From contig CBDETY010000003.1 of the NCBI GenBank assembly GCA_965243025.1, forward strand, positions 4,800,001 through 4,864,000: a DNA stretch of 64,000 nt. The letters are read 5' to 3'. Positions 18,396 through 47,003 of this stretch are shown piece after piece. Numbering within the stretch: the first letter of the stretch is position 1; each line of letters starts with the position of its first letter. The position numbers were made by a program, and so were the translations under genes. This DNA is from Candidatus Latescibacterota bacterium (GTDB taxonomy: Bacteria > Latescibacterota > UBA2968 > UBA8231). The notes beneath the pieces were generated by a model. That model was not told where the DNA came from and did no database searches. It saw only the letters and a program-made list of their open reading frames with translations.

Positions 18396-18432
18396 GCTTC
18401 CAACCAGATCGACTACAAGGGAACGATTCCCC

Positions 18433-22022: not shown

Positions 22023-25000
22023 CTACTCCCTTTTCAGGGCCGGCAGCAGCCGCTGGCGCAGGGCAAACCCCGAAGCGGCCGCTCCCGCTGCAACCCCGAA
22101 CGCCAGCACCGCCGCCAGGGTCACGGCCAGCGATCCCCAGGGCACTCCGCCCAGGTGCCCTGCGAGGTGGGGGGCGACGGCGACGAGGGCGGCAACGGTT
22201 CCGATGGCGCCCCCGGCCAGCAGCAGGAACGCATTCTCCAGCACCAGGATGCTGCGCAGGCGGGCGCGGCTGAACCCGCAGGCGCGCCAGGCCGCCAGCT
22301 CGCCGCTGCGCTCGATGGCGTTGCGCAGCAGCACCAGGGCCAGCCCGACCGTTCCCAGCAACAGCCCGAGCCCCCCCAGGGTCTGGAAGGTCGAAAGGTA
22401 GGTGTTCTCCACCGCCCCGAAGCGCGCCAGCAGGGACGCGGTGCCCGTCGCCTCGAGGCCGTACGCCTGCAACCGCCGCTCGAGGAGGGCGGCGGTCTCG
22501 TCCGGCTCCTGCTGTCCCCCCTCGACGAGGAAGTACCGGTAGCCTTCGGCGCCCGGAAAACGGCGCTTGAACTGCTCCTCCGATACCAGGATCTCGCTCT
22601 GGAAGATGCTGCCCTGGAGCAGCCCGACCAGGCGCAGGCTCAGCTCGCCTCCGGCCTCGTCGGCGAGGAGGATCTCCTCCCCGAGGCCGGAGTGGAGGAT
22701 CCAGCGCACGGAGTTGTAGTCGCCGATCGCCGGCACCACCCCGGGCTCTAGCTCTTCGTTGAGCAGCTCCCAGGGGTTGGACCCGGCTTCCGGGGCAACC
22801 TGCGCGAAGCGGAAACCGCCGCGCTCGATGAAGTCCGCCGGCAGGCCGAGCAGGGTGGGCCGCGCCGGTTTGTAGAGGTTGAGGCAGCTCGCGTCCTCTC
22901 CGGGAGAGCCGCGCAGGCGGAAGATCCGGGAGCCGTCGAGCCGGGCCCGCTCCTCCGGCGTGAACCCCTCCTCGATCAGCGCGTCGCCGCTGTCGAGATC
23001 GGCGAACACCGGGATGTCGGATTTCGCCCTCACCGCGTAGCCGCCGGTTCCCGAGTCCTTGGCGAGCGCGTCCGGCCCCGGCAGGCCGGCGCGGCGGTTG
23101 GCCGCCACCGCAACGATCGCGAAGCAGGCGCAGGCCACCAGGCCGGCGGCGAGCAGGCTGCGCCCCGGCTGGCGCCGCGTCGATGTGACCGCCAGCCCGA
23201 GGGTCGACAATGGCGGCCCGGAGGCGGGGCTTCCTCCTGCTCTCAGCCAGCTCGCAAACCCGGCCACCCCGGCGGCGAGGAGCAGCGCCCCGCTGGCGAA
23301 GAAGAGGCCGCTGGCTGCCGTGACCGAGGCAAGCGATCCGGCTGCGGACAGGGCGAGCGCCGCGGCCGCAGCCCCGGCGGCGAACAGGAACGCCCCCCTT
23401 CCGCGGCCGGCGAACGAACGGGAGGTTTCCCCGGCGAGCAGGGCGCGGGGCGCCAGGCGGCCGAGGCTCCTCACCGTCCAGGCGACGAGCGCGGCGGCGA
23501 CGATCAGCGAGGCGGCACAGCCGATGGCGAGGGTAGCCGGGGTGACGGTCAGGGACAGGTGCGAAGTGCCGACGGCATCGCGCCACAAGGTGCGCAGCCC
23601 GGCCATCATCAGCCCGGCGTATGCGGCGGCGCCCGCCGTTCCGACCAGGCCGCCGAGGGCGGCGACCGCCAGACCTTCCCCGAGGAACCGCCGGCGCACG
23701 CGGGCCAACGGCATTCCCACGGCGCGGAGAAGCCCCATCTCGCGGGCCCGCTGCTCGACCCCGAGACGGAACAGGAGCCCCGTCAGCATCGCCGCGGCGG
23801 CGATCAGGAACAGGCTGAAGCCGATGAAGAGCCCGCCGAAATCCGTTGCCCCCTCGGCTGCCTTCAGGCTGCGCTCGCGCACCGGAATGAAGCTCATCCC
23901 CAGGCGTTGCGGCTGCACGGCGGCGAGAAAGGCGCGCTCGAATTCCGCGGCCGCGGCGGCCGGCTCCTCCCCCGGCCTGGCGCCGAGTCGAAGGGAGGTG
24001 AGGCTGCCGTGGCGGCTGCCCCACAGCTTTTTCCCGGTGGCCTCGGAAACGAACGCTTTCGGCGCCGCCCCGTGCTCGTCCCAGTACGCCTCGTCCCTGG
24101 GCCGGATGCGGCCGAAATCGAGCGGGAACGGCGGCGACCAGGCGGACATGTCGCCGGCTTCCTGAATGCCGGGATAGCGGGGGGTCAGCTCGCGGTCGGC
24201 GGCGAGGCCGCGCATCTGCAGAACGGCGGCGACCCGCAGGCGGACGGAGTTTTCCGACAGCCGCTCCCCTTCGTCGACGACGAAGTACTCCAGGCGCAGG
24301 GAGTCCCCCGCGGCGACGGCGAGGTCCGCAGCCGCCCACCCGTCGAGGGCGATCTCACCTTCCCGCAAGGGCGGCAACGGCCCGCCGCCGGACAGCAGCA
24401 GCTCACCGAAACCGCCGCCGAAGGCGCTCTCCCCGAGAGCGGAGACCGTCGAGTACGGCAGCGAGCGCCCGCCCGCCGACAGGCTGTTGGCGAGGTAGGT
24501 GAAGACGGTCAGTTGCGGAATGCCCAGCTCGGAGGCGACCGCTTTTGCCAGATCGGCGGTCCCGTCATCGATGATGAACTGCTCGCTCTCGAGGGCGAAG
24601 ACGCCGCCCCCCGGCAGCTCCCGCAGCACCAGTCCGAGGTCGGTGAAAGCGAAGGCGGCTTTCAGGTCCCTTTGCAGGGCGTCGGAGGCGGCGGGGCCAG
24701 AGACCCCCGGATACCTGGCCAGCAGCCCGTTAGCCCTGCCCGGGAGTCCCAGCTCCCGCTGCAGGTCCCCCAGGTCGAGGTAGACGTTGTAGGGGGCGGC
24801 CTGGTGGGGATGCAGCCCGAAGCCGCCGGCCCCGCGGTCCGGCACGACCGCGGCGACGACCGCCCGCAGGGTCTGCACCACGTCCTCGGAGGAGCGGCGC
24901 CCGAACACGGTCGCGCGCGGCACCTCGGCGCGGCGGGGCAGCGCCAGCAGCACCGCGTCCCCGGGGCCGGCGCCGAGCTCTGCGGCCAGCCCGTTCAGAA

Positions 25001-25397
25001 TCGCGGACGGAAACGGTCCCTGTCCGTGGAACGCGGGAAGTCCCGCTTCTCCGAAAAAGGCGTTGAAGCGGCCGTCGACCCCGAGGACCTGCACCGAGGC
25101 GCGGGCCCCGGAGCCCGCGTGGGTCGCGGCCCCCTCGAGGAGGATGACCGGCGCCACTCCGGCGCCGGCGCCGCTCTGGTCGTCGATGGAAAGGTCCGCG
25201 GCGAGACCGTCCCGGAAAAAGCGGGGGGCCACGAGGGCGCAGTCGACGGACCCGAGGCGGTCGAGGACGAGGGAGCGGAGGCTGGCGCGCACCGAATCGC
25301 CGACCAGCAGGGCCCCGGTCAGCACCGCCGCGGCCACCGCGGCCCCGAGGGCGACCGCGGCGTTGATTTTCCAGTAGTGCGTCAGCGTCCGGCGCAT
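22023..25397 (-). CDS. Large FtsX/MacB-like ABC permease with duplicated permease domains
   Basis: 1124 aa; two FtsX-type motifs (VEQRAREMGLLRAVG; IERSGELAAWRACG) with large periplasmic loops. Confidence 0.88.
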   Translation of the reverse strand: MRRTLTHYWKINAAVALGAAVAAAVLTGALLVGDSVRASLRSLVLDRLGSVDCALVAPRFFRDGLAADLSIDDQSGAGAGVAPVILLEGAATHAGSGARASVQVLGVDGRFNAFFGEAGLPAFHGQGPFPSAILNGLAAELGAGPGDAVLLALPRRAEVPRATVFGRRSSEDVVQTLRAVVAAVVPDRGAGGFGLHPHQAAPYNVYLDLGDLQRELGLPGRANGLLARYPGVSGPAASDALQRDLKAAFAFTDLGLVLRELPGGGVFALESEQFIIDDGTADLAKAVASELGIPQLTVFTYLANSLSAGGRSLPYSTVSALGESAFGGGFGELLLSGGGPLPPLREGEIALDGWAAADLAVAAGDSLRLEYFVVDEGERLSENSVRLRVAAVLQMRGLAADRELTPRYPGIQEAGDMSAWSPPFPLDFGRIRPRDEAYWDEHGAAPKAFVSEATGKKLWGSRHGSLTSLRLGARPGEEPAAAAAEFERAFLAAVQPQRLGMSFIPVRERSLKAAEGATDFGGLFIGFSLFLIAAAAMLTGLLFRLGVEQRAREMGLLRAVGMPLARVRRRFLGEGLAVAALGGLVGTAGAAAYAGLMMAGLRTLWRDAVGTSHLSLTVTPATLAIGCAASLIVAAALVAWTVRSLGRLAPRALLAGETSRSFAGRGRGAFLFAAGAAAAALALSAAGSLASVTAASGLFFASGALLLAAGVAGFASWLRAGGSPASGPPLSTLGLAVTSTRRQPGRSLLAAGLVACACFAIVAVAANRRAGLPGPDALAKDSGTGGYAVRAKSDIPVFADLDSGDALIEEGFTPEERARLDGSRIFRLRGSPGEDASCLNLYKPARPTLLGLPADFIERGGFRFAQVAPEAGSNPWELLNEELEPGVVPAIGDYNSVRWILHSGLGEEILLADEAGGELSLRLVGLLQGSIFQSEILVSEEQFKRRFPGAEGYRYFLVEGGQQEPDETAALLERRLQAYGLEATGTASLLARFGAVENTYLSTFQTLGGLGLLLGTVGLALVLLRNAIERSGELAAWRACGFSRARLRSILVLENAFLLLAGGAIGTVAALVAVAPHLAGHLGGVPWGSLAVTLAAVLAFGVAAGAAASGFALRQRLLPALKRE

Positions 25398-26098
25398 CGC
25401 CCCTGGGTCAGCTCGATGCGCCGTTCACAGCGGGCGGCCAGCTCTTCGCTGTGGGTGACGACCACCAGGATGTTCCCCTCCTCCCGGTGCAGGGCGAACA
25501 GCAGTCCGGCAACCGACTCGGCGGTGGCCCGGTCGAGGTTGCCCGTCGGCTCGTCGCACAGCAGCAGGCGCGGGGAGTTGATCAGCGCCCTGGCGACGGC
25601 CACCCGCTGGCACTCCCCGCCCGACAGGGCGGCGCGGCGGTGATCAGCGCGGTCGCCGAGGCCGACGCGCTCCAGCAGTTCCCGCGCCCGCCGCTGCCTG
25701 GCGGCGTCCGGCCTGCCGAAGGCGAGCGCCGGGATCAGCACGTTCTCGAGGGCGGAGTACTGCGGCAGCAGGTGGTGGTCCTGGAAGACGAAGCCGATCG
25801 CCTCGTTGCGGAAGCGCGCCAGCTCCGGTTCGGCCAGGGCGAAGGGGTCGCGGCCGCCGATCTCCACGGCGCCGCCGGTCGGCTCGTCGAGGGTGCCCAG
25901 AATGTGCAGGAGAGTGCTCTTGCCCGATCCGGAGGGTCCGGTGACCGCCAGCGACTGGCCCGCCTCCAGGTCGAGGTCGATCCCGTCGAGAACGCGCAGC
26001 GGCTGCCCGCCCTGCTCGAACTGCTTGCGCAGCCCGCGGACCGCGAGCCGGAAGGTCTCGCCCCGGGAATCGCCGTCGGAACCGCGGTCTCCGCTCAC
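25382..26098 (-). CDS. ABC ATP-binding protein (LolD/MacB-like)
   Basis: GPSGSGKST, GFVFQDHHLL, LSGGECQRVAVARAL and DEPTGNLD motifs. Confidence 0.95.
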   Translation of the reverse strand: MSGDRGSDGDSRGETFRLAVRGLRKQFEQGGQPLRVLDGIDLDLEAGQSLAVTGPSGSGKSTLLHILGTLDEPTGGAVEIGGRDPFALAEPELARFRNEAIGFVFQDHHLLPQYSALENVLIPALAFGRPDAARQRRARELLERVGLGDRADHRRAALSGGECQRVAVARALINSPRLLLCDEPTGNLDRATAESVAGLLFALHREEGNILVVVTHSEELAARCERRIELTQGRCAGR

Positions 26099-26517
26099 GG
26101 CGGCGGCGCTTCCTCGAGCTGCGCGGCGACGATGGCGGGAATCTCGACCGACCGCATCGGCTCCCCCGGGTTGCAGATGCAGCAGGCCGACGAGATCTCG
26201 CCGCTGGCCAGCTTCTCCTCCCCCCTCCAGAAAGCGCAGGCGTAGGTCACCGACCGGGCGCTCAGGCGCGCCACCCGCAGGTGGATGTCGATTTCCTCCT
26301 CGAACCTCGCGGCGGCGTAGAACTCGCAGGAGGAGGCCATTCGCGGCCAGCTCACCCGGTCGCCCTCGAAATCCATGTGCACGCTGAGGCCGAGGGAGCG
26401 CAGGAAGGCGTGCTCGGCCTGCTCCATGAACACGTGGAAGCGGGAAAAGTGGACTATGCCGGCCGCGTCGGTGTCCTCGAACTCGACGCGGCGCCGGGTG
26501 CGGTACTCCGAGGCCAT
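26095..26517 (-). CDS. Hot-dog fold acyl-CoA thioesterase (4HBT/YbgC-like)
   Basis: RVEFEDTDAAGIVHF signature. Confidence 0.9.
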   Translation of the reverse strand: MASEYRTRRRVEFEDTDAAGIVHFSRFHVFMEQAEHAFLRSLGLSVHMDFEGDRVSWPRMASSCEFYAAARFEEEIDIHLRVARLSARSVTYACAFWRGEEKLASGEISSACCICNPGEPMRSVEIPAIVAAQLEEAPPP

Positions 26518-26523
26518 GGCTGC

Positions 26524-26994
26524 TTACGACCCCGGCCTGAAGAGGGTGACCAGGCAGCCGCCCCCCGCGGCCATGGCGATCCCGAGCAGGAACGGCCAGC
26601 TGAGGGCGCCGAGGCCGCCGGCGGGCGGGTGCAGGATCATCGCCGCGACGGCGTTGACGACCGGGGCGCCTGCGAACACGATCGCCATCACCACGGCCGG
26701 CGACCCCTTGGCGCCGAAGGCGAGCAGCACCCCGAAGGCCCCCAGCGCCCCGGCGGTTCCGGCTACAGTCGACAGGACGACCCCTTTGGCCGGGAAGTCC
26801 CAGTCGACGCCGTTGATCTTGAGCACCAGCAGCGAACCGAGGACGGCGGTCAGGAGATAGGCGACGCCGACGAACAGGAACGCCTTGTAACGGCCGTTGA
26901 CGGTATCGGCCATCGCCGTTTGTCCGCTGTGCAGCAGGACCCCGTACAGTCCCCAGGAAGCCACGGTGATGAAGGCGAACAGCAACCAGGTCAT
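26524..26994 (-). CDS. Conserved membrane protein (half EamA-like)
   Basis: MTWLLFAFITVASWGLYG..., about 5 hydrophobic helices, VMAIVFAGAPVVN; ATGA overlap with the GT4 gene. Confidence 0.75.
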   Translation of the reverse strand: MTWLLFAFITVASWGLYGVLLHSGQTAMADTVNGRYKAFLFVGVAYLLTAVLGSLLVLKINGVDWDFPAKGVVLSTVAGTAGALGAFGVLLAFGAKGSPAVVMAIVFAGAPVVNAVAAMILHPPAGGLGALSWPFLLGIAMAAGGGCLVTLFRPGS

Positions 26995-28322
26995 GCGATC
27001 TCCTCTCTGTGGACGGACCGGCGGGAAGGAACGAAGCGCTCGAACAGGGCGTGGGTGCCGGCGGCCATGACGTCGTCGCTGAAGCGCTCGCGAACCGCCT
27101 CGCTGCCGCTGGCGGCGAGCCGCTGGCGCAGAGCCTCGTCGTCGATCAGCCGCCCGATACCGGCCGCCACCGCTTCCGCCCTGGCACCCTCGGCGAGGAG
27201 GCCGCCCCCTGTCGCTTCGATCAGCTCGGGGAATGCCCCGTGGTCGGGCTGGACCACCGGCACGCCGTTGGCGAGCGCCTCGAGGACGTAGAGCCCCTTC
27301 GGCTCCCTGAACGGGGCCGGCACCGAGAGCACGTGAAGCTCCCGCAGGAAACGGATCTTCTGCGTCCGGTCCAGCACCCCCCGGTACTCGAAGCGCCCTG
27401 CGAGTCCGGCGCGCCGCAGCGTTTCTTCGACCTCCCTGAGATAGGGGCGGTCGCCGTCGCCGAGCCACCCGGCAGCGAGCAGTCTCACCGTTTCCGCACC
27501 GCGTTCTTCCGCGAGGTGTGCGAACGCCTCGGCGAGCACGTGCAGCCCCTTGTCCGGGCAGATCCGCGCCAGGAACCCGATAGTGAACGGCGTCTCCGAG
27601 GCAGGGGGAGCCGCTGCCTCCCCTTCGCCGTGTCCGCCGAGATGCAGGCCGAGCGGCACCACGTGGAAGCGGCCGCGCTCCACCTCGAGGTACCGCGACA
27701 TGAAGTCGGCGGCGTACCGGCAGGGGGCTACGAACCCGTCGGCGTCGGCGGCGCGCTCACGCAGCAGGTTCAGGGCTTCCGTCCGGAACGGCTCGACGAG
27801 CCCCTCGAGGAAGATCTCCTCCCCCTGCACCGCGCACACCACCGGCACTCCGAGGACGCTCTTCAGCCTCCCCGCCAGGCCGAGGAAGAGGCTGTTGGTC
27901 AGCAGCACGATATCCGGTCTGAAATCGGCGCGCAGCCACTCGACGAGCCGTTCGAGCTCGCGCCGCTGGTGGCCCTCCGGGCCGCGGAGCACCGACACGG
28001 TGAGGGCCCCGAGGTCGCCGGGCTGGGTCGCTCCCGAGAAGCGCGACACCCCTTTCAGCAGGGCGGGGCGCCTCAGGGCCCAGTCGACGAACCGGGGCAT
28101 GCGCCGGAAGGGCGGCAGCTTCTGCTCGAGAAAGACCCCGATGCCGCCGTAGAACACCTGTTTCATGCTGACGTCGGTTTCGTCGGTGCGCAGCGGGGTG
28201 TAGGTAGGCACCAGGGCGACGTCGACCCCGCGGCGCATCAGCGCCGCGGCGAGGGTGTTGTCGTGGATGCAGGCGCCGCAGTACATGCCCGCGGCCCCCG
28301 CGGTGATGTGGGCTACGCGCAT
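26991..28322 (-). CDS. Glycosyltransferase family 4 with an N-terminal Cys motif
   Basis: GFLARICPDKG, EPKGLYVLEALANGVPVV (ExxxxxxxE); N-terminal GAAGMYCGACIHD. Confidence 0.9.
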   Translation of the reverse strand: MRVAHITAGAAGMYCGACIHDNTLAAALMRRGVDVALVPTYTPLRTDETDVSMKQVFYGGIGVFLEQKLPPFRRMPRFVDWALRRPALLKGVSRFSGATQPGDLGALTVSVLRGPEGHQRRELERLVEWLRADFRPDIVLLTNSLFLGLAGRLKSVLGVPVVCAVQGEEIFLEGLVEPFRTEALNLLRERAADADGFVAPCRYAADFMSRYLEVERGRFHVVPLGLHLGGHGEGEAAAPPASETPFTIGFLARICPDKGLHVLAEAFAHLAEERGAETVRLLAAGWLGDGDRPYLREVEETLRRAGLAGRFEYRGVLDRTQKIRFLRELHVLSVPAPFREPKGLYVLEALANGVPVVQPDHGAFPELIEATGGGLLAEGARAEAVAAGIGRLIDDEALRQRLAASGSEAVRERFSDDVMAAGTHALFERFVPSRRSVHREEIA

Positions 28323-28355
28323 GGGGGAAAGAGAACTGCCATGCGGCGGACTTCT

Positions 28356-29828
28356 CTACGAACCGCCGCCATCCGGAAAGAAGCGCCGCAGCACCTCGGG
28401 CGCGGGCGGCTTCGTCAGCAGCGACCCGGCGACCATGGCGGCCGCCGACACCGCGAGGATGACGGCCACCGGCATGACCCCGCTGCCGCCGACGGTGTAC
28501 CCCGGGGTCTCCCATCCGAGGGAGAAGAACCAGGTCCAGAGCAGGACGACGCTGACGATCGAGGCGAAGGCGCCGGCTTTGGTGCTCCGCCGCCAGAACA
28601 GCGCCGCCAGGACCACCGGGAAGAGCGAGGCGAAACCGGTGAAGGACCAGACCGCGAGCTTGAAGATGCTGCGGTCGGCCACCTGCGCGAGGAGGAAGGT
28701 GACCACCAGGACCGCGGCGACGAAAAGGCGGCCGTACAGCACCTGCCGGCGCTCGCTCATGCTTTCTTCCCCGCCGTAGTGGCGGACGATGTCCTGGGTG
28801 AACATGGTCCCGATCGACAGCACCTGCGAGTCGAGGGAGGACATGACCGCGGCGAAGACCCCGGCCGCCAGCAGCCCCGCCAGCAGCTCGGGGGCGTGCA
28901 GGTCGATCATCTTCACCAGCACCGAGTTGGCCGCCGGCCCGGCGAGATCGGGGAAGTCGAGGCGCCCGGCGATGCCGAGGGTCACGCTCGGGATCCAGAC
29001 CGCGGCGATGCACAGGGGGTAGAACATCAGCGGGTAGCGGAAGGTGCGGGCGCTGCGCGCGGTCAGCCAGTGCATGAACATGTGCGGGAACATGCCGACC
29101 GACAGCGGAATGCAGGTGTAGGAAAGCCACTTGGCCGGCTCGATGTGCTCCGACCTGACCATCAGGTCGGGGTGGGCGGCGGCCACCGCGGACATCGCCG
29201 CCTCGAGGCCGCCCAGCTCCCCGAGGATGACGGCGAAGGCGACGCCGCCGAGCACCATGAAGACGAGAGTCTGGAAGGCGTTGGCCCAGGCGGTCCCGCG
29301 CAGCCCGCCGTAGCAGACGTAGGTCATCACCACCACGCAGACCAGAAGCCCGCCGACCCACTCGGGGACCTGCCCCTTGGTGATCTGGTGCAGGGTCAGG
29401 CCGCCTCCCATCACGCCGATCAGCAGGTAGGGGACGACGAGGGCGATCAGCACCGCGAACAGCAGCAGCCCCAGCCCGTCTGAGTCCCAGCGCCGGCGGA
29501 AGTACTGCACCTGGGTCAGGAAGCCGTGGCGCTTGCCGATCGCCCACAGCCGCGTGCCGACGAAGAAGAAGACGCAGGGAATCACCAGGGCGGAGGCGGA
29601 GGCCATCAGGCCGAACACCCCGATCCCCTCGTGGTAGGCTTCGCCCGAGGCCCCGAGGATGGCGAAGGCGGTCATGTTGGTGCCGAACAGCGACATCAGC
29701 AGCAGGAACGGACCGACGGTGCGGCTGGCGACGAAGTAATCCTCGCCGGTCCCCCTGAAGAGGCGGTGGCTCAGCCCCCCGACGAGGAGGACGAGCAGCA
29801 GGTAGACGAGGATGACGCCCAGGGTCAT
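28356..29828 (-). CDS. Sodium:solute symporter (SSS) family protein
   Basis: EDYFVASR, YGGLRGTAW, AAVMSSLDSQ motifs; about 13 TM segments. Confidence 0.92.
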   Translation of the reverse strand: MTLGVILVYLLLVLLVGGLSHRLFRGTGEDYFVASRTVGPFLLLMSLFGTNMTAFAILGASGEAYHEGIGVFGLMASASALVIPCVFFFVGTRLWAIGKRHGFLTQVQYFRRRWDSDGLGLLLFAVLIALVVPYLLIGVMGGGLTLHQITKGQVPEWVGGLLVCVVVMTYVCYGGLRGTAWANAFQTLVFMVLGGVAFAVILGELGGLEAAMSAVAAAHPDLMVRSEHIEPAKWLSYTCIPLSVGMFPHMFMHWLTARSARTFRYPLMFYPLCIAAVWIPSVTLGIAGRLDFPDLAGPAANSVLVKMIDLHAPELLAGLLAAGVFAAVMSSLDSQVLSIGTMFTQDIVRHYGGEESMSERRQVLYGRLFVAAVLVVTFLLAQVADRSIFKLAVWSFTGFASLFPVVLAALFWRRSTKAGAFASIVSVVLLWTWFFSLGWETPGYTVGGSGVMPVAVILAVSAAAMVAGSLLTKPPAPEVLRRFFPDGGGS

Positions 29829-30052
29829 GGCCGCGAGTCCTCCTGCTCTTCCTCCCCCTCGGATTCGGCCAGGTGCCGCGGCCAGGCGAAGTTGACCAGC
29901 AGCACGAGGAGGGCGGACGCGGCCACGCAGTAGCCGATGTGATAGAGGAACCCTGCGGGCAGGCCGAGCACCAGGGTGCCGTCGTCCCACAGCCACAGGT
30001 CGTTGTGCAGGGCGTAGAGGATCAGCAGCAGGATGTAGAGGCTCGGGCGCAT
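29825..30052 (-). CDS. DUF3311-like small membrane partner of the SSS transporter
   Basis: 75 aa, two TM helices, LHNDLWLW...LGLP; ATGA overlap with the symporter. Confidence 0.8.
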   Translation of the reverse strand: MRPSLYILLLILYALHNDLWLWDDGTLVLGLPAGFLYHIGYCVAASALLVLLVNFAWPRHLAESEGEEEQEDSRP

Positions 30053-31018: not shown

Positions 31019-31060
31019 CGCTTCGAAAGAAGCCCTTTGGCGGTTGCCCGGGACGGGCCG

Positions 31061-39303: not shown

Positions 39304-40739
39304 CAGGCGCGCTTTCTCATGGTGAACGCCCGCTGCCGGTACAGCAGCTCGAACAGGTTCCCCTCGTGCGGCTGGTCCCAGGCGATCTCGTTCGTCGCCA
39401 CCTCGCCGAAGTTGAGGCGGTCGATCCCGGCGGAGCTCATCAGCTGCGCCCGCAGCTCAGGATCTTCCGTCAGGGCGGTGACCACGAGGGAAGGGCCGAT
39501 CCTTTCCGCCATCTCCTCCGCGGGGGCCTCGACCACGGCGACGAACGGGAACAGGAACTCGGTGTCGGCGAGCGGGTGACCGGGGTCCTCGCACCAGATC
39601 ACCGTCGGACGCAGGAAGGTGCATCCCCCGGCGGTGGCGACGCGGCCGCTGCCCCTGACCGCGGCGGTGAGGTCGACGGCCCCGGGGGTTTCCAGCTCGC
39701 GGTCGATGAAGTCGGAAATCCGCCGCGCCCCCTCCGGGTCGGGGAAGGCGGCGAGGGCAGCGTCGGGATGGTCGAGGGGGAGCGGCTCGATCCCGGCCAA
39801 GTGCCTGGCAAGGGCCTCGGCGATCTCGCGACCGCTGCGGGGAACCCAGACGCCGGAGGCGTTGATGCAGGAACGGCCGCTGTTGTCGGCGACCGAGGAG
39901 AGCAGCAGCGGCAGCGCCTTTTCCCAGTCGCCGGCCGCGTCGCTGCCGATCAGGACCTTGCTGCGTCCAGGGCCGTGAATCTCGACGCGCGGGTCGCCGC
40001 GCCAGGGAGCGACCGTCTCCTCCCCCCCGAACAGCAGCGAGCGGCCGCAGCGGAGCAGCAGCTCCCCGGCGGCGTCGTGTCCTCCCGGGTAGAGGCTGAA
40101 GGCGGCCGGCGGACAGCCGGCGGCGATGAAGGCCTGGGAGATTCGAAAAGGGGTCCACGGCTCCCGGCTGCCCGGCTTGAGCGCCAGCGGAACCTTCAGG
40201 GCCAGGGCCGGCAGCCACAGGGTGTGCACACCCGGGGAGTTGTTGGGCAGCACCGCTCCGAGAACGTCGGAAAGTCGCCGGTAGCTGAGGGTGCGCCCCC
40301 CCTGCTCCCCCCAGCCGCTGTCGATGACCTCGAGGCCGGCGCCGCGCGTCAGCCCGCCGACGATCCGGTCCATCTGCTCGAGGGCGGAGGATATCTTCGC
40401 GGCGTTGCCGCGGCACAGGGTACGGGGCAGCCCGGTGGTGGCCGACAGCTGCGCGACGTACTCCTCGAACGGCTGCACCCGCTCCCCGAGCGGCAGGTCG
40501 GCGCCCGCGAACAGCCCGCCGGCGCGGCGGCAGATGCGCAGCAGCTCTTCCGCCGGCAGGGCAGCCAGCTCCCGCTGCGCGAGGCGGGCCCGGGACAGGT
40601 CGCGGGCGATGAGCCCGGCGTTTGCCTGGGAAACCTCGGCCACCGGCTCGCCGCCGGCCGCGTGCGAGAGGGTTTCCAGCCGCAGGCTGCGGTAGGGCTC
40701 CCCCTGCCTGAGAACGGGTATGTGCACCGGAGCGGTCAC
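39303..40739 (-). CDS. ALDH-fold acyl-adenylate/aryl-carboxylate reductase (EhpG/GriD-like)
   Basis: LPNNSPGVH.LW, LKPGSREPWT, LFGG, HGPGRSK, NSGRSCINAS (catalytic Cys), EFLFP and PHEGNL motifs. GTG start at 40739, just after the EhpF-like stop. Confidence 0.8.
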   Translation of the reverse strand: MTAPVHIPVLRQGEPYRSLRLETLSHAAGGEPVAEVSQANAGLIARDLSRARLAQRELAALPAEELLRICRRAGGLFAGADLPLGERVQPFEEYVAQLSATTGLPRTLCRGNAAKISSALEQMDRIVGGLTRGAGLEVIDSGWGEQGGRTLSYRRLSDVLGAVLPNNSPGVHTLWLPALALKVPLALKPGSREPWTPFRISQAFIAAGCPPAAFSLYPGGHDAAGELLLRCGRSLLFGGEETVAPWRGDPRVEIHGPGRSKVLIGSDAAGDWEKALPLLLSSVADNSGRSCINASGVWVPRSGREIAEALARHLAGIEPLPLDHPDAALAAFPDPEGARRISDFIDRELETPGAVDLTAAVRGSGRVATAGGCTFLRPTVIWCEDPGHPLADTEFLFPFVAVVEAPAEEMAERIGPSLVVTALTEDPELRAQLMSSAGIDRLNFGEVATNEIAWDQPHEGNLFELLYRQRAFTMRKRA

Positions 40740-40744
40740 GGCGG

Positions 40745-41848
40745 TCAGTACACCCCGACGGTCACCGACTCCTGCAGCGACGACAGCAGGCGCACGTTGG
40801 CGACCCCGTCCCAGGGGTATTCGTCGATCGGCCCGGCGCGCTCCCCCTCGTCGCGCTCGAGAAAGCGGGGCATGAAGAACTCCCGGGTGAGGGTGGTCAG
40901 CATGACGCGCCCGGTCTCCCCGCAGGCGACGGTCCGGCTGTGGTCCTCCCGGTCCACGAGCTCGATGACGGCGCGCGGATGCGAGGGGTGGTAGACGATG
41001 TCGTACCCCTGTTCCGGGTCGAAGGGACGGCAGTGCGCCAGGCCCATCAGGGTGTTGCCGTAGGTCGGTACGAAATCGATGCCGGGGACCAGCTCCTCGC
41101 GGGCGAAGCGGTGGAACTGGGCGTCCATCTCGGTGCCGCCGCAGAAGATCCCGGTGATGCCCGCCCTGGGGAGCGAGACCTTCTCGCACAGCGCCTCGAG
41201 CAGCCTCGGGGTCGTGAACAGGCAGCGGACGCTGTCGTGGGCGCGCAGGATCTTCAGCCCCTGATCGACGACGTGGCTCTTGTAGGCCTCGAGCTCCTGG
41301 TGGGCCCGGCGGCGGATCAGGTTGTTGACCCAGCGCGGGTCGAGGTCTACGAAGAAGCAGATCCCTCCGCGCATCTGGGCCAGGCGCTCGACCGCCAGCC
41401 GCAGGCGCCGCGGTCCGGTCGGTCCCAGCATCAGCCAGTCGCCGCCGCTTGGGAACCCCTCCTCGGAAAGCCGCTCGCCGAACTGCCGGTAGTCGATCTC
41501 GAAGTCGCGGATGTTGATGCGGTTCTTGGGAAGGCCGGTCGACCCGCCGGTCTCGAACACGAACACCGGATCGTTGGCGTACGCCCCCGGCACCCACCTG
41601 CGCACCGGCCCGCCGCGCAGCCACTCGTCGCGGAAATGCCCGAGCAGCTTCAGGTCCCCGTAGCCGCCGATCTCGGCCCGGGGGTCGAAGTCGAGGTTTC
41701 CGGCGAACTCGAGCCAGAACGGGCACCCGGTGTCGGGGCCGAAATGCCAGGCCACCATCTCGCGCACGTGGGCGTCGAGCCGCTCCCGGGCCGCCGCTGC
41801 TTTTCTGGCCAGGGAGGCGGGCTGGTCTCCTGCGGGGGCCGCGCTCAT
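40745..41848 (-). CDS. EhpF/GriC-like adenylate-forming enzyme (aryl-carboxylate reductase component)
   Basis: WHF.P.TG.PFWL, FDP, FETGGSTG.PK, PTGP, GG..F.VDLDPRWV, Y..HVVDQ, TTP, GGTE, YG.T, ERD and C-terminal GVY, colinear with my recollection of Pantoea EhpF. Confidence 0.8.
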   Translation of the reverse strand: MSAAPAGDQPASLARKAAAARERLDAHVREMVAWHFGPDTGCPFWLEFAGNLDFDPRAEIGGYGDLKLLGHFRDEWLRGGPVRRWVPGAYANDPVFVFETGGSTGLPKNRINIRDFEIDYRQFGERLSEEGFPSGGDWLMLGPTGPRRLRLAVERLAQMRGGICFFVDLDPRWVNNLIRRRAHQELEAYKSHVVDQGLKILRAHDSVRCLFTTPRLLEALCEKVSLPRAGITGIFCGGTEMDAQFHRFAREELVPGIDFVPTYGNTLMGLAHCRPFDPEQGYDIVYHPSHPRAVIELVDREDHSRTVACGETGRVMLTTLTREFFMPRFLERDEGERAGPIDEYPWDGVANVRLLSSLQESVTVGVY

Positions 41849-42005
41849 CCTTCCCCGAGGCGTCCAGTGCCTGCGCGCGCAAGCAGTACGAAAGAGACCG
41901 CCGAAGCGCCCGGCTCGCGCGGCGTCCAGGTGGGTCGTACCGGGGATGTACGGCCAGCAAAGGCAACGCCGCGGCCGGATTCAGACACAATGACGCCGGC
42001 AGGCA

Positions 42006-43457
42006 CTAGGGCCCTCCGATGGCGAACAGGCGGTTGCGGCTGGCTATGTAGAGGATGCCGCCGGCGGCGACCGGGGTGGTGTACACGGAGCTGCCCATGT
42101 TGATCTCGGCGAGCACCTCGAGCTCGCGCCCCGCCTCGAGGATCGCCACGTCGCCGTCCTCGTCGCCGATGTAGACCTTGCCGTCGGCGACCAGGGCCGA
42201 ACCCCAGATCGCCGCGAAGGCGTCGTACTTCCACTGCACCTCGCCGGTCTCGGCGTCGATGCAGTAGACGAAGCCGCTGAGGTCGGCGAGGTACACCAGG
42301 CCGCCGTGGATGGCCGCGGTCGAAAGGGTGCGGTGAAAGTTCCTGCCCCCGAGGTGCCAGACCGCGGCGGTGGCGGTGACGTCGCCGTTCCCGGTGGCGT
42401 CGATGCACCACAGGTTGCCCACCCCTTCCCCGTGCTCGGGATCCTGGCCGACGCCGATGTAGACGCGGTCCCGGTAAATGACGGGTGTGGAGATGATGGC
42501 GTTGCGGGTCCCTCTGCCCCCCAGCTCCCAGACCGAGTCCTCGGGGTTGCCGTCGAACTTCCACAACAGCCTGCCGGTCGCCGGATCGAGAGCGTAGACC
42601 CAGCCGTCGCCGCCGGGAAAGATCACCTGGGGCCGGCCGGCGATGACCCCGTAGGCCGGGTTCGACCACTGGCCGTGGAGGATGTTCTCCCCCGGAGAGG
42701 CGTCCTCCCACGCCACCTCGCCCGTCCTCTTGTCGACGGCGATGAAGCTCGGGGCGAACGGCGACGGGATGTGGACGTGGCCTTCGTCGACGCCGTTGCC
42801 GGTGATCACGAACAGCAGGTCGCCGGCGGCCACCGGAGAGCAGACCGCGAGGTTGTGGGGGAAGACGTTGAGCTCCTCGATCATGTCGAGCTTCCAGACG
42901 ATGTCGCCGTCGATGCCGCTGGTGTCGGCCTCGTCCCGGTAGGGGCCGTCGTTCTCGCCGTCGCGGAACCCCTCGGTGTCGGCGGCGACGACCTCGCAGC
43001 GGTTGGAGATGTAGTACAGGCGCTCTCCCTCGACGTACGGGGTCGAGCAGACTCCCTGCTGCGGCCAGTCGTTGACCCGCCCCGAGGGCAGCTTGGTGTG
43101 CGTCGACTGCCAAAGGAAGCTGCCGTCGCCGAGGGCGAAGGCGGCGATGACGCCGCGGTCCCCGGTGAGCTTTCCGTTGTACAGCGCCTGGTTGTTGGTG
43201 CCGATGAACACCTTGCCCCCGTGAACGAGGGGGCCGGCGTAGGTCTGGGACCCGAGCTGCGCCGTCCACAGGATCCCCTCCCCGGTTTCCGTGTTCCACG
43301 CTGCAGGCAGGGGACCGGCTTCCACCGTCATGTTGCGGTCCGGGGTGAAGCCGAACATCGCCGTTTCCCCCGCCCCCGCGGGGACGACCGCGGAAGCGAT
43401 CGCCGCCGCGGCCAGGACCGCGCCGGGGAACCGCCGATTTGCGAAGAATCCTGTCAT
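42006..43457 (-). CDS. Exported PQQ-like beta-propeller protein
   Basis: Signal peptide, LW.AQLGSQTY..P, repeated G.V.W blades, QWSNPAY, IGVGQDPEHG. Confidence 0.85.
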   Translation of the reverse strand: MTGFFANRRFPGAVLAAAAIASAVVPAGAGETAMFGFTPDRNMTVEAGPLPAAWNTETGEGILWTAQLGSQTYAGPLVHGGKVFIGTNNQALYNGKLTGDRGVIAAFALGDGSFLWQSTHTKLPSGRVNDWPQQGVCSTPYVEGERLYYISNRCEVVAADTEGFRDGENDGPYRDEADTSGIDGDIVWKLDMIEELNVFPHNLAVCSPVAAGDLLFVITGNGVDEGHVHIPSPFAPSFIAVDKRTGEVAWEDASPGENILHGQWSNPAYGVIAGRPQVIFPGGDGWVYALDPATGRLLWKFDGNPEDSVWELGGRGTRNAIISTPVIYRDRVYIGVGQDPEHGEGVGNLWCIDATGNGDVTATAAVWHLGGRNFHRTLSTAAIHGGLVYLADLSGFVYCIDAETGEVQWKYDAFAAIWGSALVADGKVYIGDEDGDVAILEAGRELEVLAEINMGSSVYTTPVAAGGILYIASRNRLFAIGGP

Positions 43458-43477
43458 CCCTGTTTCCCCCGTGCCCG

Positions 43478-45733
43478 CTACCAGACGCGGACGTTGTCGT
43501 AGAAGATCTCGGCCGCCGAGTACCCGTAGAGCCCCGGACTGCCGCTGCGGTTCGGCAGCGGGTCCTCCGCTTCGATCGTCCAGTCCCGGGGCTCCTCCTC
43601 GCCGCGGCGCCAGACCTTGCCTTTGACGACCGCCCTGTCCGCTTCGACGTCGACCGTCATCCTGACGGTGTACCAGACTTCGGGTTCCCAAGCGAAGTCG
43701 ATGGTCTTCGCCATGCGCAGGTCGGACGCCCAGGAGCGGATCTGCAGGCGCTGGTGATTGCCCATCATGTCGAGGGTGTAGCGGTTGGCGATCAGCCCCA
43801 TGTCTGGGCGGTTGCGCTTCCCCCGGGCGGCCATCATGTCCGCCTGGACGGTGTACCCCGACATCTGCGGCGGACCGAGGTAGACGTTGGAGCGCTGCAG
43901 TCCGCGTTTGGCCAGCGGTTTCGCCAGGACCTTGTTGCCGTCGAGCTCGCGGACGAAGAACTTGCGCGCCGCCCCGATCCAGTGGGAGGGAGCCGCGTTC
44001 TCACCCTCGGCCGCGCTCAGGGACTCGAAGTCCTCGCTCCAGCCGCGTTCGGGGACGACCCGCACGCGGGCGTGCGCGGCCAGCGGCTCGCTCTCATTCC
44101 CGCCGAAACGGATGCTCGCGGTTACGCGGCCGGTCCGGGAAACCTCCGGGGCCGCAGTGAAAAGGGCGGTCTCCACGCCCGCTCCTGTTTCCTCCTCAGC
44201 CTCGATTTCTCCCGCCAGTCCTTCGAGCCGCCAGTCCACCCCCTGCTGGAGGAGGGACTCTTCCGCCAGCGCCCGGCCCGCGTCATCGAAAAGACGGACC
44301 CTGAAGCGCACCGAGTCTCCCGGAGCGAGCAGCACCTCGGCGGGCACGAGCTGAACCGATGCCGGGGGTTTATCCGAAACAGGTACGTCCGTCGAGGCCG
44401 GAGAACCGGACGGGCCGGAGGCCGAAGGACCGCGGAAGGAGTCGCCGAGGCAGAACAGCCCGTCTTCGGTCGTGAAGTAGACGCAGCCCCAGGCGGCCGC
44501 CGGGGAGCCGTATATCTCGAGCGGCCGGCCTTCTTCGGCGGTCAAAAGCTCCTCGTCGAGGAGCAGGCACTCCCCCTCTCCAGGCTGCAGGATCTGGAAC
44601 CTGCCGTTGACGGTGGCGGCGTAGATCCTGCCGTCGGCGGCCACCGGCGAGCCCCTGCCGACAGTGCCGATGTTGCGCTCCCAGAGCAGGGTGCCGTCGC
44701 CGGCGTCGAGGCAGAGCAGGTTGGCGGAGTTGTCGACGACGTACAGCCTGCCGTCGTCGAGCGCCGGCGAGGCGTAGCCGGCCAGGCAGGCGTCGCGGCG
44801 CCAGATCTCCCCGGTGCCGGTCACGTCCCCCGTGCCGGTGGCGTCGATGCAGACGACGCGGCCCATCTCGGTGTTGTCGACGTTCTCCTCGCTGTGGGAT
44901 ACGTAGACCCGGCCGTCTCCGGCGACGACGGAGACGTTGATGCCGCGCTTGCTGAGCCGGAAGCCCCACACCTTCTCTCCGGTGGCGGCGCACAGGGCGT
45001 ATACGGCGCCGTCGGCGTTGCCGGCGATCATCAGCCGCTGACCGCCGATATCGGCGGCCACCGGGGTCGAGTAGGTGGTGTCGAGGGGTCGTCCGCCCGG
45101 AGTCGACACCCAGACAACCTCGCCGCTGTTCTTGTCGAAGGCGAAATACCGGTGCCGGGGCACCGCCTGGTCGCCCCAGCTCGAGTTGAGGAAGGAGATC
45201 ACCACGAGGCCGCCGTCGACGAACGGCGTGTGGGTGCGGCCCCCGTACCCGGAGATGCGGCCGAACTCCTCGGTCAGCGACCGCGACCACAGCAGCTCGC
45301 CGTCGCCGGAGTAGCAGTTGAAGATCCCCTGCACCCCGTGGGCGTAGACGTTGCCGGTTTCGGGATCGCCTGCGAGGCTGGCCCAGCCGACGCGGTTGAA
45401 CGGGATCGTCGTGTGGAAGACGTTGAGGCGGTCCTCCCAGAGCAGGGCGCCGGTGGCGGCGTCGAAGCAGGCGATGCGCTCCTGCTCGGTGATCCCCTCC
45501 CCGACCCGGCCGATGACGTAGACGCGCCCGTTCATGAGGATGGGTGTCGAGCGGCCGACGAACTCCGCGCGCCACAACAGGCCGCTGCCGGACCGGGACC
45601 AGGCCGAAACCAGGCCGGTCTCTGCGGATGCCCCGGTCTGACCGGGGCCCCTCCAGTGGGGCCAGCCGGCGGCCGCCGGCTCCGGACCGGGTCCGGAAAC
45701 GAGGGTGAGTGCTAGGAGAAGGAGAAGAACCAT
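43478..45733 (-). CDS. Exported PQQ-like beta-propeller protein with C-terminal Ig-like and lectin-like domains
   Basis: Signal peptide, WPHWRGP, propeller blades, then VQLVPAEV..PG (Ig-like) and a C-terminal 'GSPGLYG...YDNVRV' domain. Confidence 0.85.
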   Translation of the reverse strand: MVLLLLLALTLVSGPGPEPAAAGWPHWRGPGQTGASAETGLVSAWSRSGSGLLWRAEFVGRSTPILMNGRVYVIGRVGEGITEQERIACFDAATGALLWEDRLNVFHTTIPFNRVGWASLAGDPETGNVYAHGVQGIFNCYSGDGELLWSRSLTEEFGRISGYGGRTHTPFVDGGLVVISFLNSSWGDQAVPRHRYFAFDKNSGEVVWVSTPGGRPLDTTYSTPVAADIGGQRLMIAGNADGAVYALCAATGEKVWGFRLSKRGINVSVVAGDGRVYVSHSEENVDNTEMGRVVCIDATGTGDVTGTGEIWRRDACLAGYASPALDDGRLYVVDNSANLLCLDAGDGTLLWERNIGTVGRGSPVAADGRIYAATVNGRFQILQPGEGECLLLDEELLTAEEGRPLEIYGSPAAAWGCVYFTTEDGLFCLGDSFRGPSASGPSGSPASTDVPVSDKPPASVQLVPAEVLLAPGDSVRFRVRLFDDAGRALAEESLLQQGVDWRLEGLAGEIEAEEETGAGVETALFTAAPEVSRTGRVTASIRFGGNESEPLAAHARVRVVPERGWSEDFESLSAAEGENAAPSHWIGAARKFFVRELDGNKVLAKPLAKRGLQRSNVYLGPPQMSGYTVQADMMAARGKRNRPDMGLIANRYTLDMMGNHQRLQIRSWASDLRMAKTIDFAWEPEVWYTVRMTVDVEADRAVVKGKVWRRGEEEPRDWTIEAEDPLPNRSGSPGLYGYSAAEIFYDNVRVW

Positions 45734-46960: not shown

Positions 46961-47003
46961 CCGTCTCCTCCCCTTCCTGTGGTTTTTCTTGCGGCTTTCC
47001 GTG

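Follow-up and report, generated by a model that had tools for sequence, protein, structure and literature searches.

A conserved cluster of 17 genes combining a putative two-protein acid reductase, a predicted flavin-dependent halogenase and exported propellers in a Latescibacterota genome and its relatives

Two-protein aryl carboxylic acid reductases that depend on ATP and NAD(P)H are known from the D-alanylgriseoluteic acid (phenazine) pathway of Pantoea agglomerans (EhpF/EhpG) and from the grixazone pathway of Streptomyces griseus (GriC/GriD). In bioluminescent bacteria, LuxE and LuxC form an acyl-adenylate and then reduce the enzyme-bound acyl group to the aldehyde with a protein resembling aldehyde dehydrogenases (ALDH), and the 4-chlorobenzoate pathway follows a logic of ligase, ring-modifying enzyme and thioesterase of the 4-hydroxybenzoyl-CoA thioesterase (4HBT) type. 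The genome of a Candidatus Latescibacterota bacterium (GenBank assembly GCA_965243025.1) contains, within a stretch of 64,000 nucleotides that was analysed as a whole (contig CBDETY010000003.1, positions 4,800,001 to 4,864,000; hereafter the window), a cluster of 17 minus-strand genes at positions 22023-45733 of the window, in which a pair of the EhpF/EhpG or GriC/GriD type is accompanied by genes for a halogenase, a ligase, a radical S-adenosylmethionine (SAM) enzyme, a glycosyltransferase, transport proteins and three exported propellers. These genes are a real, conserved functional unit made of three modules, found in metagenome-assembled genomes (MAGs) that bear the labels of several phyla. 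Each family is known on its own, the combination is uncharacterized, and the unusual feature is the conserved periplasmic propellers. The chances appear about even that the unit encodes a carrier-protein-independent pathway by which an aromatic acid is halogenated, reduced, glycosylated and exported, with the product destined for the cell envelope.

All 17 genes were confirmed in the coordinates, order and overlaps that the original prediction gave for them, and the Pfam and NCBIfam results are consistent with their labels. Operon 1 runs from propeller 1 through propeller 2, the EhpF-like enzyme, the ALDH-like reductase, an iron-containing alcohol dehydrogenase (Fe-ADH), propeller 3, a HemN-like radical SAM enzyme, a TonB-dependent receptor (TBDR) and a PaaK-like ligase to the halogenase; operon 2 runs from a DUF3311 protein through a sodium:solute symporter (SSS), a GT4-family glycosyltransferase, a polytopic membrane protein, a thioesterase and an ATP-binding cassette (ABC) ATPase to an FtsX-type permease. 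Long spurious open reading frames (ORFs) are abundant in the window because its G+C content is approximately 69%, and the real genes were chosen by third-position G+C together with the Pfam and NCBIfam family scans. The arrangement in two minus-strand operons, with the gene orders and junction overlaps as predicted, thus holds for all 17 genes, but the 0.9-kb gap between the operons is filled by a gene that had been missed, encoded on the plus strand (approximately 30401-31018) and specifying an AAC(3)-like member of the aminoglycoside 3-N-acetyltransferase family (PF02522, E 7.6e-43). The predicted limits of 22023 and 45733 are right, because none of the genes that flank it here adjoins the cluster in the other genomes for which extended stretches were compared. 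The predicted absence of non-ribosomal peptide synthetase (NRPS), polyketide synthase (PKS), acyl carrier protein, phenazine (phz) and pqq genes was likewise found among the window ORFs scanned with Pfam, a few of which had no Pfam match at all.

The EhpF-like protein has more than 8000 database protein matches, the best 120 of which are all at least 72% identical to it. A scan of one genome per species yielded 80 loci labelled Poribacteria, Latescibacterota, Gemmatimonadota/Gemmatimonadaceae, KSB1 or Acidobacteria, many of them in sponge MAGs, with which the window proteins were compared by tblastn. In all 80 loci, across the five phylum labels, whichever operon-1 genes occur are arranged on one strand in the window order, so that the genes do co-occur in other genomes. 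Counting a gene as skipped if it is missing while a later gene in the order is found, and noting that the other loci end too early to be judged, the ALDH-like gene is present in 65 loci and skipped in none; the corresponding numbers are 34 and one for Fe-ADH, 32 and none for propeller 3, 29 and none for the radical SAM enzyme, 18 and one for the PaaK-like ligase, and ten and none for the halogenase. The TBDR gene is optional, being present in nine and skipped in 11 of 20 judgeable loci. Eight loci lack propellers 1 and 2 at the upstream position and have instead a divergent propeller gene after the radical SAM gene. Median identity to the window ranges from 49% (propeller 3 and the receptor) to 74% (the EhpF-like protein). 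Because the loci range from 42% to 73% G+C, the similarity is not due to recent transfer of unameliorated DNA, and because the core proteins stay 60-77% identical over that range, strong selection on an undefined function is indicated.

Longer stretches were examined in five carriers (G001-G005) in which the orthologue of the FtsX permease was located. In G001, G002 and G005, operon 1 is succeeded by operon 2 on one contig and in the same orientation; in G003, operon 1 extends to the edge of its contig, and a different contig opens with operon 2; in G004 (Poribacteria), the thioesterase, ABC ATPase and FtsX genes are 2.1 Mb from operon 1. In G001 and G002 an extra propeller gene with PQQ_2 repeats and a gene for a hydrolase of the haloacid dehalogenase (HAD) superfamily lie between the halogenase and DUF3311 genes (L094:2674-3963 and L094:4495-5268 in G001; L096:2178-3629 and L095:18735-19487 in G002), and the stop of the HAD gene overlaps the DUF3311 start in G001. 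G001 (= G164, labelled Gemmatimonadaceae) and G002 (= G169, labelled Latescibacterota) both fall in the family of the window organism, with clusters that differ little; hence the two MAGs carry inconsistent public phylum labels, and the window organism groups with MAGs labelled Latescibacterota.

The phylum of the window organism is represented by 168 species genomes, and the cluster is common among them: a single-copy EhpF-like gene is found in 98. An orthologue of the halogenase (E<=1e-110) is present in 94 of these 98 genomes and in none of the 70 that have no EhpF-like gene, and the four carriers without it are fragmented assemblies of approximately 150 to 430 contigs that are 84-95% complete. 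The FtsX permease has an orthologue (E<=1e-100) in 97 of the 98 carriers and, at 32-40% identity, in six genomes without an EhpF-like gene; related genomes are not independent samples, and these counts are given without a statistic. The predicted co-occurrence holds even where the modules are unlinked: in several single-contig genomes (e.g., G097, G093, G107, G146 and G135) the modules lie 0.3-3 Mb apart and all are kept. The EhpF-like, halogenase and FtsX genes are at 0.71, 0.37 and 1.73 Mb in G097 and at 1.01, 2.97 and 3.34 Mb in G093, and in G107, G090, G146, G147 and G135 the halogenase and transporter genes are separated by no more than approximately 20 kb and are 1.4-3.1 Mb away from the EhpF-like gene. 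Retention of modules after their separation points to functional dependence rather than mere adjacency. The explanation that two or three unrelated operons happen to be neighbours here, for which the intervening AAC(3)-like gene and the distance of the transporter module from operon 1 in G004 and several genomes of the phylum could be cited, is therefore close to refuted by these counts and by the shared order and strand in G001, G002 and G005, where the AAC(3)-like gene does not occupy the inter-operon position. In G171, a member of the window's family, the EhpF-like and halogenase genes are 9 kb apart on contig 2, and this genome is unique among the 98 in having no FtsX match at E<=1e-100.

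The core of operon 1 is a pair of enzymes that would activate and reduce a carboxylate. The truncated adenylating enzyme of the EhpF/GriC type (367 aa, 40745-41848) matches only EhpF among solved structures in the PDB (3l2k/3hgu, E 5.1e-41), the match being near full length (residues 24-357 against 20-355 of the chain), which bears out the EhpF-like label of the prediction; Pfam reports only a weak AMP-binding match (PF00501, 27.7 bits), and a search of the ESM Atlas with this protein returned generic AMP-binding clusters only. The stop of its gene overlaps the start of the gene for the ALDH-superfamily partner, an EhpG/GriD/LuxC-like reductase (481 aa, 39303-40748; PF00171, E 1.5e-16) that has only weak ALDH matches in the PDB and contains a Cys in the motif GRSCINASG. 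Judging from this motif rather than from a structural alignment, the Cys would be the equivalent of the ALDH catalytic Cys. A truncated subunit of the ANL superfamily and an adjoining ALDH partner with a Cys are the features by which a two-protein acid reductase is recognized, and by sequence comparison the pair is assigned to the EhpF/EhpG or GriC/GriD type, with the EhpF-like protein as the predicted ATP-dependent half. The likeness extends to the size of the adenylating enzyme (approximately 365 aa, without the usual C-terminal ANL domain), to its translational coupling to an ALDH-superfamily protein with a conserved Cys, and to the alcohol-forming dehydrogenase that comes next. The differences are that the window cluster has no phenazine or 3-amino-4-hydroxybenzoate (3,4-AHBA) genes, that its pair is set between exported propellers, with the EhpF-like protein 70-77% identical across the 80 loci (42-73% G+C) and several phyla, and that its alcohol-forming reductase is Fe-ADH (378 aa, 38167-39303; PF00465, E 5.2e-45; PF25137, E 4.4e-37), whereas EhpK of the EhpF system is a short-chain dehydrogenase/reductase. 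Assignment of the pair to the LuxE/LuxC type was rejected: only PF00501 and PF00171 are reported at E<=1e-3, with no match to Pfam LuxE (adenylating enzyme) or LuxC (reductase) at that threshold, the closest solved relative is EhpF and not LuxE, and the window cluster contains neither LuxD nor luciferase.

The last protein of operon 1 (417 aa, 31061-32314; PF04820, E 1.2e-27) carries the signature of flavin-dependent halogenases of the PltA/CndH/Bmp2/CmlS group. Its best PDB matches are all halogenases (E 1e-62 to 9e-43), led by 8zop (E 1e-62), PltA (1.3e-53) and 3e1t (2.3e-53) and including 5buk, 5bva, CmlS and ChlB4, of which 3e1t, 5buk and 5bva are presumably CndH, Mpy16 and Bmp2, respectively; tryptophan halogenases match only weakly. 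The GxGxxG motif (GGGPAG, residues 12-17) is kept in all six sequences that cover the region (the window and five loci). A Lys in FPRKYSVQF, which aligns with a Lys of PltA (FPKKFGAAW) and of 8zop, is invariant in seven of seven aligned sequences (the window and six loci), and this column is assumed to be that of the catalytic Lys that carries or positions the hypohalous species. WFWYIP at residue 218, an instance of the WxWxIP motif that was taken to separate halogenases from monooxygenases, is identical in the same seven sequences. The halogenase-like label of the prediction therefore stands on the PDB matches, the conserved Lys and WxWxIP, although the protein is below the NCBIfam equivalog cut-off for CmlS (178 versus 900 bits). 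PltA, CndH, Mpy16, Bmp2 and CmlS share the GxGxxG, Lys and WxWxIP features that are conserved in the window orthologues, but the window halogenase has no carrier protein, NRPS or PKS partner in its cluster and is coupled instead to a PaaK-like ligase and a 4HBT thioesterase.

The stop of the PaaK-like ligase gene (436 aa, 32307-33617; AMP-binding_C_2, PF14535, E 2.5e-19) overlaps the start of the halogenase gene. The PaaK models score the ligase at 239.4 and 208.5 bits against cut-offs of 700 and 646.3, and the FlxY (flexirubin ligase) and BagE models at 149 and 106 bits; on these scores it is placed in the wider PaaK/F390-synthetase-like family only. The hotdog thioesterase of the 4HBT/YbgC type (140 aa, 26095-26517; PF13279, PF03061), which is conserved in G001-G005, scores 63.1 bits with TIGR00051 (cut-off 68.7). 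The ligase, the predicted ring-modifying enzyme and the thioesterase repeat the logic of the 4-chlorobenzoate pathway. A different reading of the same genes is that a fatty or aliphatic acid is converted Lux-style to an aldehyde and an alcohol, that the GT4 enzyme glycosylates the alcohol and the EamA-type membrane protein flips it, and that it is then extracted by the Lol/MacB/DevC-like ABC-FtsX transporter and placed in the outer membrane with the aid of the BamB-like propellers, to give an envelope glycolipid. An adenylating enzyme, an ALDH-like reductase and an alcohol dehydrogenase would provide fatty-acid reduction chemistry, and a YbgC-like acyl-CoA thioesterase, GT4, a half-size drug/metabolite transporter (DMT) protein and a double-FtsX permease are parts of envelope type. 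Nevertheless, a glycolipid product appears improbable, given the EhpF match at E 5.1e-41 without Pfam LuxE or LuxC, the grouping of the halogenase with phenol and pyrrole halogenases, the membership of the ligase in the PaaK family of aryl-acetate ligases, and the failure to find fatty-acid or polyketide synthase genes in the window. On the side of the glycolipid, a preprint on sponge-derived clusters of the class Halo_AMP reports antiSMASH matches to BrtI, the gene of the bartoloside glycolipid exporter (bioRxiv 10.64898/2026.08.03.742642).

The radical SAM enzyme (449 aa, 35682-37031; PF04055, E 1.4e-21) keeps its motif CRKRCKFC (CxxxCxxC) in 30 of 30 aligned sequences (the window and 29 loci). 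It has a HemN_C domain (PF06969, 25 bits versus a cut-off of 24), and its PDB matches are HemN (1olt, E 7.5e-35) and NocN (9p2u, E 1.6e-29). The radical SAM core, CxxxCxxC motif and HemN_C domain are shared with HemN and with class C radical SAM methyltransferases (NosN/NocN, ChuW/HutW, C10P/YtkT), but the window enzyme is below the NCBIfam cut-offs of HemN, HemW, HemZ and ChuW/HutW, and the cluster contains no tetrapyrrole, thiopeptide or C10Q-type partner gene. The neighbouring TBDR (698 aa, 33602-35698; plug PF07715 and barrel PF00593) reaches the siderophore-receptor subfamily TIGR01783 only marginally, at 224.2 bits against a cut-off of 223.5. Uptake and anaerobic degradation of haem by the TBDR and a ChuW-like enzyme was considered and rejected, the radical SAM enzyme being far under the ChuW/HutW cut-off and the receptor dispensable. 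The marginal TIGR01783 score might suggest a metallophore system, in which a small halogenated phenolic chelator would be made and re-imported with the TBDR as the uptake gate; the KSB1 locus adds two proteins of the PF00756 'putative esterase' family (L066:8313-9536 and L066:17709-20123), one joined to a PQQ_2 propeller and the other carrying TPR repeats, and propeller 2 resembles, at the level of fold only, Rv3035 (Z 32.6), which was solved with the siderophore-binding protein FecB. However, the core genes are conserved without the receptor, which is absent in 11 of 20 judgeable loci and in the Poribacterial loci examined, no NRPS or NRPS-independent siderophore (NIS) synthetase was found, and there is no obvious route to a chelating group, so that this function is very improbable.

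Three genes of operon 1 encode propellers, which are predicted to be exported: all three proteins and their Poribacterial orthologues have hydrophobic, signal-like N-termini (that of propeller 3 begins MRAPQRLAVQVLAAC), as read from hydrophobicity rather than by a signal-peptide predictor. Propeller 1 (751 aa, 43478-45733; PQQ_2, E 3.7e-30) is BamB-like with a C-terminal all-beta domain; propeller 2 (483 aa including the signal peptide, 42006-43457; PQQ_2, E 1.5e-28) is assigned the signal-peptide start at 43457, although the longest ORF reaches 43691; propeller 3 (379 aa from the signal-peptide start, 37028-38167; PQQ_2, E 2.2e-39) scores 181.5 bits with Beta-prop_ACSF4, for which the cut-off is 133. 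The prediction of three exported propellers is thus retained, but their description as resembling pyrroloquinoline quinone (PQQ) proteins was overstated, since they are of the BamB/YxaL type and score 70.3, 44.8 and 26.3 bits against a cut-off of 480 for PQQ dehydrogenases (TIGR03075/TIGR03074); they are also below the BamB cut-off of 285.2 (TIGR03300/PRK11138) at 159.3, 73.2 and 57.4 bits. The PqqC model (TIGR02111) has no match in the genome of the window organism, and its control likewise matched nowhere. Tat export of propeller 2, suggested by an NRRF motif near the N-terminus of the window protein, was dropped as an explanation because its orthologues in Poribacteria have ordinary signals of the Sec or lipoprotein type.

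AlphaFold2 (AF2) models of propellers 1 and 2 were built from alignments made for the purpose. The propeller 1 model (predicted local distance difference test, pLDDT, 84.2) has eight blades and an all-beta C-terminal part without a Pfam match, and Foldseek ranks BamB best (E 5e-18), with tetrathionate hydrolase and PQQ-dependent alcohol dehydrogenase lower; its median identity is 63% over 64 loci. In most Poribacterial loci two genes take the place of propeller 1, one for the propeller itself and one for a lipoprotein of approximately 317 aa (lipobox LAAGC) that corresponds to the C-terminal domain of the window protein (examples are L020:5006-6361 and L033:6803-7756). The propeller 2 model (pLDDT 81) is also eight-bladed and aligns by VIA-align with YxaL (Z 37.4, root-mean-square deviation 2.3 Å over 336 residues) and BamB (Z 35.2), followed by Rv3035, tetrathionate hydrolase and PQQ dehydrogenases (Z 29-33). 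Propeller 2 is the most conserved of the three (63-74% identical, with a mean column identity of 67% in an alignment of 28 sequences), and stretches of invariant His, Asp, Glu, Asn and Arg residues occur in the three low-confidence loops of the model (124-133, 222-230 and 313-315), which may form a ligand-binding or catalytic site, as judged from the alignment rather than from residues mapped onto coordinates. Prediction of a complex between propellers 1 and 2 gave a median score of 0.01 (individual runs 0.00, 0.71 and 0.01), the mark being 0.32. BamB and YxaL share the eight-bladed fold with propellers 1 and 2, but the clusters of the window type hold three to five propeller paralogues each, the conservation of propeller 2 greatly exceeds what a scaffold would need, and propeller 1 has its extra C-terminal domain. 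It is conceivable, if distinctly unlikely, that the propellers are new enzymes whose substrate or prosthetic group is an exported, halogenated, C1-decorated aryl alcohol glycoside. If so, the cluster would be an undescribed envelope system of MAGs labelled Latescibacterota, Poribacteria, Gemmatimonadota, Acidobacteria and KSB1, the propellers would be a new family of periplasmic catalysts, and simple halogenated aromatics in sponges would have a candidate bacterial source in the cluster.

Operon 2 appears to be devoted to transport and glycosylation. The small DUF3311 membrane protein (75 aa, 29825-30052; PF11755, E 2.6e-08) is the probable partner of the SSS (490 aa, 28356-29828; PF00474, E 1.2e-41), with a 4-nt overlap of the DUF3311 stop and the SSS start and with the same pairing in L073 and G001. 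The SSS is the best-conserved operon-2 protein (79% identical in G001 and G002), which makes uptake of a carboxylate from outside the cell a serious possibility; since the animal iodide symporter belongs to the SSS superfamily, import of halide could be imagined as a remote idea, by analogy. The GT4 enzyme (443 aa, 26991-28322; PF00534, E 1e-21; PF13439) is 50-63% identical in G001, G002, G003 and G005. The 156-aa polytopic membrane protein (26524-26994) has no Pfam or NCBIfam match; from its hydropathy (approximately five hydrophobic segments) it is probably a single EamA-type (half-size DMT) domain, its neighbours in the ESM Atlas are named 'putative EamA domain-containing protein' (score 0.97, taken as a lead only), and it is 62-74% identical in four genomes. 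The ABC ATPase (238 aa, 25382-26098; PF00005, E 1.6e-33), 54-69% identical in G001-G005, adjoins a double-FtsX-domain permease (1124 aa, 22023-25397; PF02687 in two stretches) that matches no NCBIfam model and whose hydropathy profile indicates approximately ten transmembrane segments and extracytoplasmic loops at 33-522 and 767-1005. MacB, LolCDE and DevCA likewise combine a separate ABC ATPase with an FtsX-domain permease that has large extracytoplasmic loops, but in the window the permease is a single protein with two FtsX domains and approximately ten transmembrane segments, and no membrane-fusion or TolC-like gene was seen adjoining it.

The source of the acid bears on the interpretation of these importers. 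UbiC-type chorismate lyase (PF04345) was found in none of six carriers (the window organism's own genome, 96% complete, and five others), while the Escherichia coli control was positive; 4-hydroxybenzoate made by UbiC was therefore rejected as the general precursor route, in a search that covered this route to aryl acids and no other. Poribacterial loci offer a further clue. Extra genes lie inside the cluster in 59 low-G+C loci (mostly Poribacteria, among L003-L082; e.g., at L067:11181-11882 and L080:10943-12442): a Vgb-lyase-like protein without a signal peptide follows the EhpF-like gene in 42 of the 59, a sulfatase that has a CxPxR motif but lacks a signal peptide is encoded between the EhpF-like and ALDH-like genes in 26, and proteins with Laminin_G_3 domains are encoded upstream in 25. 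The sulfatase weakly fits phenolic or aryl-sulfate substrates. Such an insertion of a cytoplasmic sulfatase and a Vgb-lyase-like propeller, the presence of two importers in the cluster (the 79% conserved SSS and the siderophore-type TBDR), the lack of chorismate lyase in six of six carriers and of any precursor-supply gene, and the occurrence of related strains in sponge metagenome runs would all suit a pathway that does not synthesize its aromatic substrate de novo but scavenges or detoxifies an exogenous phenolic acid or aryl sulfate, which would be imported through the TBDR and SSS and then halogenated, reduced, glycosylated and expelled or deposited in the envelope. This alternative shares every enzymatic step with the biosynthetic pathway and differs only in the source of the substrate. 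Although the likeliest of the alternatives, it is considered unlikely, because the halogenase signature is biosynthetic and atypical of detoxification, no ring-cleavage or dehalogenase genes were seen, and high conservation in genomes labelled as five phyla, including MAGs titled as planktonic marine ones, points to an intrinsic function.

In the halogenation and reduction pathway that is proposed here, an aromatic, probably phenolic, acid would be imported by the DUF3311/SSS pair and in some carriers also by the TBDR, or else would be drawn from central metabolism, and the PaaK-like ligase would convert it to the CoA thioester. The flavin-dependent halogenase would chlorinate or brominate the ring, the 4HBT thioesterase would release the acid, and the HemN-like radical SAM enzyme might add a one-carbon (C1) unit by C-methylation or carry out some other radical step. 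The EhpF-like/ALDH-like pair would then reduce the carboxylate to the aldehyde at the expense of ATP and NAD(P)H, Fe-ADH would reduce the aldehyde to the alcohol, and the GT4 enzyme would glycosylate the alcohol. The EamA-type protein and the ABC/double-FtsX transporter would move the product out of the cytoplasm, and the three conserved exported propellers would bind it or transform it further in the periplasm. The original prediction had described a complete tailoring route; the genes for activation, reduction, halogenation, glycosyl transfer and transport and their status as a unit support the route, but not its completeness, in view of UbiC in none of six carriers and of the precursor-supply and flavin reductase genes that were not seen.

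Several considerations weigh against this pathway. What kind of substrate is used, which reactions occur and in what order, which way transport runs and what the propellers do are all read from the genes, no reaction, substrate or product having been observed. No precursor-supply gene was found, and neither a flavin reductase nor a carrier protein is among the window ORFs scanned; halogenases such as PltA, CndH and Bmp2 usually act on carrier-tethered substrates, and halogenation of a CoA thioester by the window enzyme is an assumption made by analogy with the ligase and thioesterase logic. Specificity is poorly constrained in that Fe-ADH, the PaaK-like ligase, the thioesterase and the SSS are each below every curated NCBIfam equivalog cut-off, those for PutP, PanF and MctP included in the case of the SSS, and the radical SAM enzyme scores 181.8 bits against 400 for ChuW/HutW, 171.7 against 324.95 for HemN and 150.8 against 205.4 for HemW. 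Methylation is one possibility among several for this protein, since decarboxylases and haem chaperones are also found among HemN-like enzymes. BamB and YxaL, whose folds the modelled propellers resemble, are not enzymes. Finally, the receptor is dispensable in the 11 loci noted above, and the cluster of G005 (Acidobacteria) has no PaaK-like ligase and no close SSS.

No characterized product of this gene set was found in the literature searched, the scope of which excluded subscription journals and preprint supplements, and the original statement that none is known therefore stands: the search gave only a cataloguing preprint, which reports no MIBiG match for the class Halo_AMP (bioRxiv 10.64898/2026.08.03.742642). 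Clusters of this class were mined from sponge metagenomes by the presence of a flavin-dependent halogenase together with an AMP-binding enzyme, frequently contain PQQ-like domains and genes for radical SAM enzymes, TonB-dependent transporters, glycosyltransferases, thioesterases and reductases ('AR'), derive from Latescibacterota, Poribacteria and Acidobacteriota, and have BagE/YtkN-like ligases (bioRxiv 10.64898/2026.08.03.742642). In the window the halogenase gene adjoins the PaaK-like ligase gene and shares its operon with the EhpF-like gene, which is the combination that defines Halo_AMP, and the domain mix is shared, without establishing correspondence to any particular Halo_AMP family. 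The family that the preprint describes in detail (CC A) has P450s, whereas the window cluster has none, and genome-level co-occurrence, the EhpF-type reductase and propeller conservation are not reported in the part of the preprint that was accessible. The earlier term 'orphan' is accordingly apt as regards a characterized product but not as regards the listing of sponge clusters with a similar domain mix (bioRxiv 10.64898/2026.08.03.742642). The planctomycete baaA/baaB locus for dibromo-anisic acid was compared and set aside; as it is described in the portion of the source available, it consists of a chorismate lyase and a halogenase only and is not the window cluster.

Words from the window were found in 20 public sequencing runs of 12 studies, several of which are labelled sponge metagenome. 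Among four runs compared, run X1 contains exact contigs, and the sponge metagenome X6 and the sponge metatranscriptome X20 contain contigs that are 90-99% alike. The X20 contigs cover parts of both operons, but these are contig-level data with possible carry-over of DNA, and because contigs from an RNA library do not prove transcription, the match lends only weak support to expression. Some of the MAGs that bear the cluster are labelled as lineages that are abundant sponge symbionts. If the product is a halogenated aromatic glycoside, the cluster would give a testable genetic origin to part of the halogenated chemistry of the sponge holobiont and would be a new case in which a halogenase works with no carrier protein; with approximately 17 genes, it is a compact target for heterologous expression.

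An Rfam scan of the whole window at gathering thresholds returned no matches and hence no riboswitch clue to a ligand, and a promoter and terminator scan of the inter-operon gap found nothing above shuffled expectation. Three long ORFs on the plus strand (3413-6145, 11407-12924 and 60096-62000; 910, 505 and 634 aa) have coding-like third-position G+C and no Pfam match at E<=1e-4. Upstream of propeller 1 are genes for a galactonate-dehydratase-like enolase, an amidase and a cyclopropane-fatty-acid-synthase-like protein; the enolase-superfamily gene (45812-47050, minus strand), which exceeds the cut-off for galactonate dehydratase (PRK14017, 319 versus 311 bits), ends 78 bp before propeller 1 and is not conserved with the cluster elsewhere. 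On the other side, a second ABC ATPase gene and an ABC-2 permease gene (PF06182; 19397-21968, minus strand) start 55 bp after the stop of the FtsX permease gene and are not beside the cluster in other genomes. Beyond these, a region of lower G+C content (0.61-0.65) at 13047-19245 contains an ORF that fuses an extracytoplasmic function (ECF) sigma factor to TPR repeats and genes for a GT2 glycosyltransferase, an asparagine-synthase-like protein and a PhyH dioxygenase.

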